This document shows, piece by piece, positions 55,653 to 58,635 of a DNA stretch of 64,000 nucleotides. This stretch comes from an uncultured Spirochaetota bacterium. GTDB taxonomy: Bacteria; Spirochaetota; Spirochaetia; SZUA-6; Fen-1364. The position numbers and the translations under genes were made by a program. Position 1 is the first letter of the stretch, and each line of letters begins with the position of its first letter. The notes beneath the pieces are model-generated. The model did not search any database. It was not told the DNA's origin and saw only the letters and a list, made by a program, of their open reading frames with translations. The stretch is taken from positions 98,355 through 162,354 of the forward strand of contig CAVUXE010000054.1 in NCBI GenBank assembly GCA_963745235.1, in the 5' to 3' direction.

Positions 55653-55791
55653 GTATTGCCTGTCATTGTATCCCGAAAAAAATCCGATCGCCACTGAACC
55701 GTCACGGCAGAGGGCGAACGCCTTGGGTTGATCGCGGCTCTCAAGGGTGCAACAATGCAGGTCCGCGGTGTTGTGGATGGAGAGGTGACAC

Positions 55792-56226
55792 ATGACGAAA
55801 GAAGATCGGCTCATCCTCGTCGCCCCCTGCGGGATCGACTGCGGGAACTGTTCGCTGAGCATGTGCAAGGACAATCCCGAGCTGGTGGAGCGGCTGGTTG
55901 CGAGAGGGATTCCCCGCGAGAAGCTGCCGTGCGCGGGGTGCAGAAGCGTCAAAGGGGCTTGTCCCGTGATTGCCGAGACGTGCGAGACCTACGAATGCAT
56001 TCGTCAGGAGGCAGTCAATTTCTGCTACGAGTGTGCTGACTTCCCCTGCGCGAAGCTCTGCCCTTCCTCCCAGAGGGCGGATGTTCTTCCCCACAACCTC
56101 AAGGTCTTCAACCTCTGCATGATAGAACGTGCCGGCGTTGAAGGCTTTGCAAAGGTTTCGGGAGACCTGGAACGGCTGTACTTCAAGGGAACAATGGAGA
56201 TTGGAAAGGGCCCCCGGCTGGCGTGA
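55792..56226 (+). CDS. Cys-rich metal-binding protein (DUF3795-like)
   Basis: APCGIDCGNC, CAGCR and C...C.....FCYECADFPC. Confidence 0.85.
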   Translation: MTKEDRLILVAPCGIDCGNCSLSMCKDNPELVERLVARGIPREKLPCAGCRSVKGACPVIAETCETYECIRQEAVNFCYECADFPCAKLCPSSQRADVLPHNLKVFNLCMIERAGVEGFAKVSGDLERLYFKGTMEIGKGPRLA

Positions 56227-56232
56227 TATACT
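56224..56232 (+). promoter_or_regulatory. Extended -10 promoter (TGaTATACT) 6 nt before ATG 56239; leaderless configuration
   Basis: TG-A-TATACT-CCTGGT-ATG with no Shine-Dalgarno. Overlaps the TGA of the upstream gene. Confidence 0.55.
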
Positions 56233-56238
56233 CCTGGT

Positions 56239-58635
56239 ATGGTGCGTCGTGAAAAGCCGTATCGTTCCAGCGGATGAAAGTTCCGCCCGGGTAAGCGTCG
56301 GAGCGCCCGGTAGCAGGGTCCAGTCAGAGGCCGAAATGTCTCTGACCGAGCGGACCGACAAAAGCCTCCAAGGAGGAAGCAACACAGCGGGCCGCAACGC
56401 GAGTGAACGCCGAGCAAGCCTCGTCAGAGTATCAGCCGAAAGGTGTTCAGGGTGGCCGAGCCGATCATGCCACGGCGAAGGCAACAGACAACGGACCGAA
56501 TCCGAAGTGGACGTTGGACGCCCTCGGGGTATTGGCGGCAGCACGTTGTGACGGAATGGTAGGGAACACGAGAGGCCCTCCCTGGCGGCCCACGTCGGGC
56601 AAAGACCACGCGTATAAGGGGGAGACCGAAAGCGCGCGGAGTCAGGAGGGAGTCCGAGGGGTTCGTAGTACCTGAGAAGGCGGTGAGAAGCCGCTGGAGG
56701 GAAGGGACCCTGCTTTGAGTGTGCTGGGGCGTGGAGGTAAGCGCGAGGGCATGGTCGAAAGACCCAACAACCCCGAAGAAAAAGTGCGAGAACTCCAGCG
56801 ACGGCTATGGACATGTGCCAAGCGGAGCAGGAGCCGACGTTTTCACGCGCTGTATGACCGGATCTGGCGGGGTGACGTCCTGCTGGAGGCGTGGAGACGG
56901 GTGAAGGCGAACGGAGGTGCCGCGGGGGTGGATGAGGTGTCCATCGGCGACATCGAAGAGCGAGGGGCGGGAGAGTATCTGAAGGAGATACAGAACGTCC
57001 TGAAGGCAGGCAGGTATCGACCGTCACCGGTGAGACGGCGATACATCCCCAAGGGGGACGGGAGGCAGAGGCCGCTGGGGATACCGACGGTGAGGGATCG
57101 CGTGGTGCAGATGGCAACCAAGCTGGTGATCGAACCCATATTTGAAGCCGACTTTCAACCGTGCAGTTGGGGGTTTCGACCGAGAAGGGGAGCGACGCAG
57201 GCAATGGAAGTCATTCGCGAGGCGGGCAACCGAGGGCATAACTGGGTGCTGGACGCCGATATTCGGGATTACTTCGGAAGCATCGACCATGGGAAGCTCA
57301 TGGTGTTGGTGAAGGAGCGGATCTCGGACAGGCGAGTCCTGAAACTGATCGGTCAGTGGCTGGCGGCGGGCGTGATGGAAGATGGGACGGTGAGGGAAAC
57401 GCTTGCGGGAACCCCGCAAGGCGGAGTGATCTCGCCGCTGTTGTCCAACATCTACCTTGGCTTTCTGGATCGCATCTGGGAGAGCAAGTGCAAACACCTT
57501 GGAATCCTGGTGCGTTACGCTGACGACTTCGTGGTGCTGTGCAAGAACAAGTCGCAGTGCAAGGAAGCCCTCAGGCGCGTAAAGATTGTGATGGAACGCC
57601 TGGGGCTGGAAATGCATCCCGAGAAAACGCGCGTAGTGAATCTGGCACTGGGTAAGGAGGGCTTTACGTTTCTTGGGTGGACGGTGCGCAAGTGCAGGAG
57701 CATTCAACGCAACCCACGCTGGCATTTCGTGCAGCGCTGGCCGTCGCCGAAGGCTATGAAGCGAATCCGATCCCGCGTGCATGAGATCACCGAGGCGCGA
57801 GGAAGGCAAGCGAAGGGCATAGGGGAGCTGATCGACAAGCTAAACCCGGTGCTTTGTGGATGGGGCAACTACTTCCGAACGGGCAACGCGGACCGAGAGT
57901 TCAACCGAGTGGATGACTACGTGTACGGCCGTGTGCTCCAATGGCAGTGGCGACGGGGCGGACAGCGAACGCGCTTCCGTTTCGACCGATGGCCCCAGAA
58001 ACGCCTGTACGAGATGGGCCTGCAGCGACTGAGGGGGACTACGCGATATCCCCAGGCAGCCACTCCGCGCAAGCACGGTCAGGAGAACTCATCGGTAAGC
58101 TGTGTGCCGGAAAACGGCACGCACAGTTTGAAAGGAGGTGCTGGGAACGGGTCGCTCTGAGCGATACCGCACCAGCTATCGACCAATTAACCCAAGAGTC
58201 TATCTCCTCCTCAACCTCGTTCTCGCCTTCTACAACGTTGGAACAATCTGGGCGCACGAAACCGACATTTTCCGTTCCTGGAAGCTGATCGATCCAAAGG
58301 ATTTCCTCCGGGTCCAGACCGCGCACTGGCGCAAGCTCCCATTCTGGATCTTCATTCCCGTGGGCCTCGGGCTCGTGGGAAGCGTAACTCTCGTCTGGTA
58401 CCATCCTCCCGGCTCGCCGCTCTGGGGCATCGCGGGAGCGGTCCTGTGCCAGGCTCTGTCTCTCGTTCTGACAGGCATCTTTTGGGGACCATGGCAGGCA
58501 GGCCTTTCACGTGATCCTCTGGGGCCGAGAAGTCCCTACCTTGCGAAAATCCTCAAGACGCACTGGGTGAGGACTCTCCTTATCAACTTGAACGCGCTGG
58601 TCATTCTCGCCTGGACTATCGCCGTGCTATCCTGA
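56239..58635 (+). CDS. Intron-split membrane protein (exon 1 = ATG 56239-56241; exon 2 = 58186 or 58189 to 58635), four-TM DUF1772-like
   Basis: Exon 2 frame (I)NPRVYLLLNLVLAFY...HWVRTLLI is hydrophobic and has no own start outside the intron. Joining to ATG 56239 restores M(I)NPRVYLLL. Confidence 0.7.
56242..58188 (+). mobile_element. Group II intron (RT-encoding, no endonuclease domain); 3' end between 58183 and 58188
   Basis: 5' GTGCG at 56242. EBS1 loop CATGCCA (56466-56472) in a GCCG/CGGC stem is complementary to the 5' exon TGGTATG. Domain V AAGCTGTGTGCCGGAAAACGGCACGCACAGTTT (58097-58129). Domain VI with bulged A near 58182. Confidence 0.93.
56751..58160 (+). CDS. ltrA: Group II intron reverse transcriptase/maturase
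   Basis: RFHALYD, GAAGVD, RPLGIPTVRDRVVQ, GFRP, DADIRDYF, GTPQGGVISPLLSNIYL, VRYADD, FLG and GWGNYF. No HNH domain. Confidence 0.96.
   Translation: MVERPNNPEEKVRELQRRLWTCAKRSRSRRFHALYDRIWRGDVLLEAWRRVKANGGAAGVDEVSIGDIEERGAGEYLKEIQNVLKAGRYRPSPVRRRYIPKGDGRQRPLGIPTVRDRVVQMATKLVIEPIFEADFQPCSWGFRPRRGATQAMEVIREAGNRGHNWVLDADIRDYFGSIDHGKLMVLVKERISDRRVLKLIGQWLAAGVMEDGTVRETLAGTPQGGVISPLLSNIYLGFLDRIWESKCKHLGILVRYADDFVVLCKNKSQCKEALRRVKIVMERLGLEMHPEKTRVVNLALGKEGFTFLGWTVRKCRSIQRNPRWHFVQRWPSPKAMKRIRSRVHEITEARGRQAKGIGELIDKLNPVLCGWGNYFRTGNADREFNRVDDYVYGRVLQWQWRRGGQRTRFRFDRWPQKRLYEMGLQRLRGTTRYPQAATPRKHGQENSSVSCVPENGTHSLKGGAGNGSL

Follow-up and report, generated by a model that had tools for sequence, protein, structure and literature searches.

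The window analysed here is a stretch of 64,000 nucleotides (nt) from an uncultured Spirochaetota bacterium (assembly GCA_963745235.1, contig CAVUXE010000054.1, positions 98,355 to 162,354), and the element under study occupies 56242-58188 on its forward strand. Judged by its RNA domains and its protein, this segment is a mobile, IIB-like group II intron that encodes a reverse transcriptase (RT) and maturase and no endonuclease. It separates the start codon of a conserved small membrane protein from the second codon, and a -10-like box precedes that start codon. The intron is very probably a member of a lineage that has specialised in inserting directly behind the first codon of leaderless genes. 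The features of the locus are collected in Table 1.

Table 1. Features of the intron locus, in window coordinates (EBS and IBS, exon- and intron-binding site; ORF, open reading frame; registers (i) and (ii), two placements of the splice sites discussed in the text).
Feature	Position	Strand	Remarks
Upstream gene (DUF3795)	55792-56226	+	Stop TGA 56224-56226 overlaps the -10-like box; syntenic in intron-free alleles
Extended -10-like box TGATATACT	56224-56232	+	Ends 6 nt 5' of ATG; ATACT 56228-56232 is the proposed IBS2
IBS1 TGGTATG, 5' exon	56235-56241	+	Takes in the host start codon ATG 56239-56241
Host-ATG frame read into the intron	56239-56277	+	12 codons, then TGA 56275-56277
Group II intron, 1947 nt, register (i)	56242-58188	+	Defined by intron-free alleles L100/L101; 56241-58187 in register (ii)
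5' GUGCG	56242-56246	+	Directly 3' of ATG 56239-56241
Domain I core	56268-56402	+	Rfam RF02003, 96 bits (gathering score 49)
Proposed EBS2 core AGUAU	56428-56432	+	Within CAGAGUAUCAG 56425-56435; complementary to ATACT of the -10 box
EBS1 hairpin loop AUCAUGCCA, 9 nt	56464-56472	+	CAUGCCA 56466-56472 pairs with UGGUAUG 56235-56241
RT/maturase ORF, no endonuclease domain	56751-58160	+	Stop TGA 58158-58160 in domain VI
Domain V	58097-58129	+	RF00029; covariation in 7 of 13 pairs
Domain VI	58134-58184	+	Pairs G58134-C58184 and G58135-C58183; unpaired branch candidate A58182
3' tail AAUU	58185-58188	+	Terminal triplet ATT 58186-58188 in frame with the host ORF
3' exon, codons 2-149 of a conserved small membrane protein	58189-58635	+	Without Pfam or NCBIfam family

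The insert, its boundaries and its host gene

Two metagenome contigs, L100 and L101, carry intron-free alleles of this locus and fix the extent of the insert. Their sequence upstream of the junction is near-identical to that of the window; ...TGATATACTCCGGGCATG is joined to AATCCAAGAGTC, and the junction itself runs ...GGCGTGATATACTCCGGGCATG and then AATCCAAGAGTCTATC, read as ATG followed by AAT CCA AGA GTC. Since both alleles lack the insert at this locus, the inserted segment measures exactly 1947 nt (or is a segment of equal length shifted within the AT repeat). The gene in these alleles starts at exactly the ATG of 56239-56241, and the first-pass annotation, which had placed the GTGCG 5' end directly behind this codon, agrees with the sequence at these positions. 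The same annotation had argued that only ends at 58185 or 58188 rebuild the host gene. The arithmetic is sound; 58188 is upheld both by the intron-free alleles and by the closest homologue of the host protein (P0001, 94% identity, 149 amino acids, N-terminus MNPRVYLLL), whereas 58185 is not. Altogether, the two alleles exclude intron ends at 58183 (canonical AC), at 58185 (which would give M-I-N-P...) and at 58187. A combination of two canonical ends, GUGCG with AAU, would shift the host frame and is excluded by the phase test and by the Pfam register of the host ORFs, both described below.

The host protein has 842 homologues, mostly of 148-149 amino acids and starting M-x-P. Host-gene copies in 60 relatives and in genome G000 are merely 29-62% identical and thus uninformative on the empty site. 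Among the intron-free homologues of the host gene (L100-L179), TATATT or TATAGT followed by 6 nt and ATG is frequent, and many members of the family show a -10 box, 6 nt and ATG without a Shine-Dalgarno (SD) sequence.

A different reading keeps a canonical AC end at 58183 and lets the host gene start at GTG 56223, which overlaps the upstream stop (GTGA), so that splicing would give MIYSWYAINPRV.... With an intron of 56242-58183, the GTG at 56223-56225 is indeed in frame with the host ORF, and GAC offers a canonical AY end. However, CAATT is missing from the intron-free alleles, whose GTG does not share the frame of the ORF, the homologues have the length and M-x-P start given above, and only 1 nt would separate the branch A from the intron end. 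Furthermore, CCAATG is kept at 44 of 49 independent sites of related introns, which marks it as intron sequence. The intron-free alleles refute this reading.

In group II introns the boundary consensus is GUGYG at the 5' end and AY at the 3' end, and an unpaired branch A in domain VI is expected about 7 nt from the 3' end. In a consensus fold of 24 sequences, compensatory changes support domain V, and A58182 aligns with the unpaired A of domain VI, 6 nt before 58188; the earlier claim that this bulged A takes its usual position if the intron ends at 58188 is thereby borne out. The RF00029 match (domains V and VI, 58095-58208) reaches 39.8 bits, just below the gathering score of 40. The intron protein matches RVT_1 (6e-37), GIIM (7e-16) and TIGR04416, the NCBIfam model of group II RT/maturases (425.7 bits, cut-off 300); no match to an HNH/En domain was found in it, and it ends about 50 residues past GIIM. 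Its ORF takes up 1410 nt of the 1947-nt intron and continues across domain V to a stop 25 nt short of the terminal triplet. A strong SD-like AAGGAGGTG at 58132-58140 (GAAAGGGG in relatives) makes up the 5' strand of domain VI; in sequence it precedes the terminal triplet by 45 nt, yet it lies at the base of the same helix.

Two further copies, L002 and L003, reside in the same genome; they are nearly identical and have different flanks. On the left, all three copies show TAYACT, 6 nt, ATG and GTGCG, and on the right they end in ...CTATCGACCAAT(G/T). Behind the other two copies, clear gene starts follow (MKKAKTAV... and MKALFIGGTG...). The full site pattern TAYACTNNNGGTATG occurs twice in the genome, and both occurrences are occupied. 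Of the three, the window copy has accumulated the most mutations, with six private differences from L002 and L003. These include an extra A in the first domain I loop near the 5' end (56252-56255), an R-to-C change in the conserved RGW motif of the maturase (57874-57876) and a terminal G-to-T change at 58188. The window copy is probably decaying, being the oldest or most decayed of the three, and may rely on the protein of the other copies. In the first-pass annotation the last triplet, ATT, had been considered as a substitute start lying in frame with the host gene. The frame is correct; the ATT itself proved to be private and derived, the state of the lineage being ATG.

Lineage census and proposed target recognition

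A scan with the intron protein over one genome per species yielded 80 loci, or 83 with the three copies of this genome. These divide into 57 loci of the lineage, 22 of a Firmicutes-type outgroup and four others without the pattern, the last two groups having been set aside by their ends. Membership was defined by the 5' motif GTGCGTC(C/G)TGA and/or the 3' motif YTACCAATG. Within the lineage, four loci are without the 5' junction and eight without the 3' end, which leaves 53 sites and 49 introns. According to the labels of the metagenome-assembled genomes (MAGs), the hosts are Acidobacteriota (mostly Bryobacterales), Spirochaetota, Planctomycetota, Pseudomonadota, Actinomycetota, Elusimicrobiota, Myxococcota, Nitrospirota and others. 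The lineage is widespread: in no fewer than eight phyla, relatives occupy sites with one common order of -10 hexamer, about 6 nt, ATG, intron and codon 2 of a real gene. In a quick tree of 65 of the 83 loci (intron-encoded protein of at least 400 amino acids), all ATG-type rows fall into one clade of 45 rows, which also contains four pattern-less rows (L054, L055, L057 and L088) at an unresolved fork.

The last exon triplet is ATG at 46 of the 53 sites, the remainder being GTG (1), ACG (2), GGG (2), GCG (1) and AGG (1). TANNNT is present 5-10 nt upstream at 48 sites, with a spacing of 6 at 32 and of 7 at 9 of them; in 1000 shuffles, such a box turned up at 4.0 sites on average and at no more than 12. 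Only one of the 53 sites has an SD-like core. At the other end, the last intron triplet is ATG in 44 of the 49 introns, ACG in four and ATT in the window only, and the 3' end reads ACCAATG in 44. The layout noticed at first in the window, an extended -10 box 6 nt before the ATG and no SD sequence, is thus found there and across the lineage, and the proposal of a lineage homing to start codons is in line with the census of 57 introns.

The sequence behind the introns was examined at 47 sites (two loci end at the intron). At 44 of these, the frame set by the terminal triplet runs for 50 codons or more without a stop, compared with 19 and 26 in the other two frames, and the median open length is 192 codons versus 35 and 58. 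Among 20 sampled host ORFs, 13 match Pfam families, including epimerases, a class IV aminotransferase, MscS, a tetrapyrrole methylase, HAD, AhpC and SRAP. At least five of these matches start within the first 6 residues, at profile position 1-2; one of them is the SRAP match, in a host ORF beginning MCGRY.... As read from these ORFs, the host genes are ordinary and varied and are interrupted directly after the first codon.

Recognition of the start codon appears to rest with the EBS1 loop. In the window, the pairing of CAUGCCA with UGGUAUG extends over seven pairs, one of them G-U, exactly as first described, and the pairing count and the predicted loop both agree with it. Nucleotides 3-5 of the loop are CAU where the exon carries AUG, and they differ where the triplet differs: CGU accompanies exon ACG (L046 and L047), and CCCG accompanies CGGG (L041). 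The pairing was assessed on 47 of the 53 sites. Contiguous pairs from position -1 number three to seven at 45 of these, the window and L002 having seven. Beyond the triplet, at -4 to -7, 113 of 188 positions pair, whereas permutation gave a mean of 93.9 and a maximum of 105, with none of 5000 permutations reaching the observed value.

A second domain I segment appears to be EBS2, with the -10 box as IBS2. Its position is 5' of a GAAA-capped hairpin, and the consensus fold predicts it to be unpaired. It follows the pattern CA-N-A-x-U-x-U-CAG, the variable positions of which track the -10 hexamer of the respective site. The partners are AGUAU with TATACT in the window, AGUGU with TACACT, AUUAU with TATAAT, AUUCU with TAGAAT, AUCGU with TACGAT and AUGAU with TATCGT. 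At a spacing of 6, 149 of 195 cognate positions pair over 39 sites (permutation mean 126.9, maximum 141, 0/5000). These 39 of 53 sites are the pattern-matched ones, so that the best compensatory cases (L024, L034 and L075) were missed. Conversely, the genome copies are non-independent and the EBS2 and -10 variants follow host taxon, whereby the permutations overstate the support. The first-pass annotation had regarded the intron as capturing a promoter. The box is indeed present lineage-wide, but it is not merely captured and is apparently read as IBS2.

From this covariation, a recognition mechanism can be proposed. The EBS1 loop would read AUG by its CAU, together with zero to four further nucleotides, while EBS2 (AGUAU in the window) would read positions 2-6 of the -10 hexamer. 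Combined, these two pairings would make the DNA target a core promoter plus start codon.

The same data may be viewed in another way, in which TANNNT is an intron-binding site that merely resembles a -10 box and the genes do have leaders, gene starts being enriched because insertions there are harmless and survive. As the box covaries with an intron segment, pairing alone could explain it, and the window site was not called as a promoter. Against this stand the single SD-like core among 53 sites, the intron-free host-gene homologues with the same succession of -10 box, 6 nt and ATG, and a spacing that varies from 6 to 10 nt as in promoters. In addition, long in-phase ORFs follow at 44 of 47 sites, and stops are avoided in the host-AUG frame of the introns (23 of 40 unique sequences, versus 0 and 0 in the other frames). 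A mere binding site is consequently improbable, and the specialisation for leaderless gene starts is the preferred reading.

Splice register and proposed expression after insertion

The exact cleavage positions can be drawn in two registers, AUG/GUGCG...AAUG/ (i) and AU/GGUGCG...AAU/G (ii), the choice between which is near even on the features of the aligned introns. With ATG on both sides of the intron, the ligated exons are equal under the two. In the window, GTGCG at 56242 is combined with ...AAUU (AAUG in relatives), and a shift by 1 nt turns this into an AU end and a GGUGCG start. The verdict of a non-canonical 3' end reached at first therefore stands in register (i) and lapses in the equivalent register (ii), with its canonical AU end.

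Register (ii) would place both splice sites 1 nt upstream, splitting the start codon as AU/G around an intron GGUGCG...CCAAU, a placement to which a little under an even chance is given. The 3' exon would then begin with the conserved G (as IBS3 or delta'). In the window copy, splicing in this register would yield AUU-AAC, a dead start codon. Several regularities speak for it. At the conserved end, all 49 introns have A at position -3 and a pyrimidine at -2, which makes a canonical AY, and the next nucleotide is G in 48 of 49. G also precedes GUGCG at all 53 sites. Under register (i), by comparison, the first exon nucleotide is C in 21 cases, A in 14, T in 7 and G in 6, which follows no IBS3 rule, and it differs even between identical introns. 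Furthermore, the variants ATG/TTGCG, of which one genome holds two identical copies at different sites, and ATG/TCGCG keep G1 under (ii) and lose it under (i). The expected gamma nucleotide in the joining segment J2/3 is A in most introns and would pair with U, while L024 and L025 have G with AAC.

Other features argue against register (ii). GUGCG and the first domain I stem align base for base with the 5' end of the outgroup. In the outgroup, the third nucleotide of the 9-nt EBS1 loop pairs with position -1 (ACAUCAA with UUGAUGU/), and this register, applied to the present introns, places the cut after AUG. In the outgroup (CUACUCUAU), the branch A is 6 nt from the end, as it is under (i), whereas under (ii) the distance is 5 nt. 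Finally, L034 and L041 combine a gamma A with AAC, and L020 combines C with U. The outgroup introns (L058-L091, Firmicutes-type), which are the nearest relatives not of the ATG type, are located inside a conserved coding sequence ending ...HVE(T/C)VVLM, a motif that resembles the C-terminus of an RNA methyltransferase. They have canonical GUGCG and AU ends, their 3' end CUACUCUAU being followed by C, and their splicing would restore a Ser codon (T/C N).

After insertion, transcription from the host promoter would yield an intron RNA preceded by a 5' exon of no more than about 3 nt, and an in-frame AUG (AUU in the window copy) would remain beside codon 2 at the junction. Translation of the host ORF might then be possible without splicing, for example if ribosomes re-initiate behind the intron ORF, which ends 25 nt upstream. 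Should transcription begin at the ATG, the RNA would not contain IBS2, and EBS2 would act on DNA only.

The reading frames of the intron bear on how such RNAs may be translated. Over 471 nt of the 5' part of the ribozyme, the host-AUG frame is free of stops in the 23 of 40 unique relatives mentioned above (L017, L026, L036, L056, L046, L051 and others), and the 40 sequences contain 68 stops in this frame compared with 199 and 213 in the others. No frame is open in any of 14 unique outgroup sequences (0/14). The open frame usually comprises 161-162 codons, and the conserved UGA that closes it lies about 30 nt upstream of the AUG of the intron protein. In L040, L052 and L083, which have about 45-55 extra nt near the 5' end, it continues in frame into the RT ORF (658, 647 and at least 488 codons, respectively). 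Where insertions shift the phase, the conserved GUGAAC reads GCGAAC and the stop is lost. The subfamily of the window does not keep the host-AUG frame open; in the window itself, the frame is cut to 12 codons because of the extra A near the 5' end. At the other end, the intron ORF of 33 of the 49 introns, that of the window included, crosses domain V and stops in the domain VI loop. The stop is then 8-43 nt from the terminal triplet, whereas in the outgroup and basal members the distance is about 100 nt.

This conservation suggests that in many relatives ribosomes translate from the leaderless AUG into the intron. A more far-reaching version, in which the lineage takes over translation as well as transcription, ribosomes starting at the leaderless AUG and reading through domains I-III while the host protein is made from the in-frame AUG at the intron end, is considered rather unlikely. 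If it were true, insertion would turn a leaderless gene into a translationally coupled unit of three cistrons; synthesis of the host protein would not depend on splicing, whose only role would be in mobility.

Several points weigh against a specialisation for the starts of leaderless genes, in addition to the non-independence of the copies noted for EBS2. A scan of 55700-56400 for the sigma-70 consensus found no promoter (0), and the window site is without a -35 element. The upstream gene ends 12 nt before the ATG, and read-through transcription from it is possible. The distance of 6-10 nt between the -10 box and ATG is unusual for an IBS2-IBS1 pair. In either register the group II consensus is broken, at the 3' end (AYG) or at the 5' end (GGUGCG), and J2/3 (gamma) shows no clean covariation with the last intron nucleotide, the picture being mixed. 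The ATT end, the R-to-C change in RGW and the extra A indicate that the window copy may not splice by itself. Lastly, contigs from two RNA and two DNA read runs were compared with the locus, the RNA libraries possibly containing DNA. The peat metatranscriptome contigs match only the intron interior, 56417-58093, and within this range show no transcript start, spliced junction or lariat. Contigs at least 99% alike number 8 of 18 in X11 and 7 of 30 in X14. A single joint in X14, 56423-56525, looks like the variant of a relative, and one DNA contig (record 29, X2) spans 56880-58209.

Relation to known introns and atypical members

A 2015 review distinguishes three types of bacterial group II targets, namely homing sites, terminator motifs and attC sites (PMC4424553). 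If the proposed specificity is real, the core promoter plus start codon of leaderless genes, recognised by base pairing, would be a fourth. The lineage would also provide a natural ribozyme obliged to splice with a 5' exon of about 3 nt, and its EBS2 might serve DNA targeting only, IBS2 being upstream of the transcript. The introns could mark leaderless genes in uncultured Acidobacteriota, Planctomycetota and Spirochaetota, and a testable link between leaderless initiation and retroelement expression is raised. An intron targeting "any leaderless start" may further be of interest as a gene-targeting scaffold.

That introns favouring translation signals had already been reported, as stated in the first-pass annotation, is confirmed by a IIB1 lineage at start and stop codons of housekeeping genes, which carries a 300-700-nt insertion in the 5'-subterminal part of domain I (Gomes et al., 2025, PMC12584367). 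As far as the available text of that article describes it, the resemblance lies in a specialised lineage tied to translation signals and in insertion at or next to the initiation codon. A usable codon is likewise kept at the junction, as in the IIB1 groEL introns, where UAA becomes UAG through the first G of the intron. The domain I core of the window intron starts 26 nt after the 5' end without a large insertion, although roughly 45-60 nt are inserted near the 5' end of some relatives. EcKTE56.groEL, the one member examined (Avi.groEL is another named example), has a CL1-type protein with an endonuclease domain, whereas the window protein comprises RVT_1 and GIIM only. In contrast to the housekeeping targets, the hosts here are varied and the site includes a -10 box. 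On these descriptions, the present lineage is distinct from the IIB1 start/stop lineage, while it may overlap in part with members described in 2007.

Class C (IIC) introns have no EBS2 and insert after the hairpin of a terminator or attC site. The present introns resemble them in having no endonuclease domain and in using a short IBS1 plus a second, generic signal, which gives many dispersed sites. They differ in their EBS2-like segment, which covaries with the target, and in 5' flanks that are -10 boxes rather than hairpins. The closest solved RTs by score are the IIC enzymes 7uim (205 bits) and 6ar1 (192 bits); TeI4h (6me0, 180 bits) scores nearly as well, so that the RT is not clearly of class C.

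A further parallel may be found in the endonuclease-less class F and class E-like IIB introns, exemplified by So.us.I2 of Solibacter (Toro and Martinez-Abarca, 2013, PMC3552965). By their description, which was the sole basis of comparison, they share a IIB-type RNA, an RT/maturase without the DNA-binding and endonuclease (D/En) region and an occurrence in Acidobacteria, Planctomycetes and Firmicutes. The available text of that article makes no mention of start codons or promoters as targets, and targeting of leaderless genes or -10 boxes is likewise not mentioned in the accessible parts of PMC7306698, PMC4028801, PMC3552965 and PMC4424553. A full-text literature search found no paper that connects group II introns with leaderless genes or with -10 boxes, although the curated intron database may list such sites. 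The lineage is thus apparently undescribed.

Some members of the lineage depart from the common pattern. L024, L025 and L034 are introns ending in ACG whose site has a perfect 7-bp IBS1 (TGAAATG), and two of them also have a perfect IBS2, TACGAT with AUCGU. This site, found in three MAGs, precedes a small ORF (RDLVILF...) without a Pfam match; it may be the "home" site of the lineage, perhaps within another mobile element. L041 is retargeted, combining the EBS1 loop CCCG with a 5' exon that ends ACGGG and an ACG intron end; it lies upstream of an SD-led gene (AAAGGAGACCGCATG) and is hence off the start codon. In L038 and L039, domain V is followed by GTGTGTCCAGCG..., which resembles the 5' end of another group II intron, and these two may represent a twintron inserted near domain VI.

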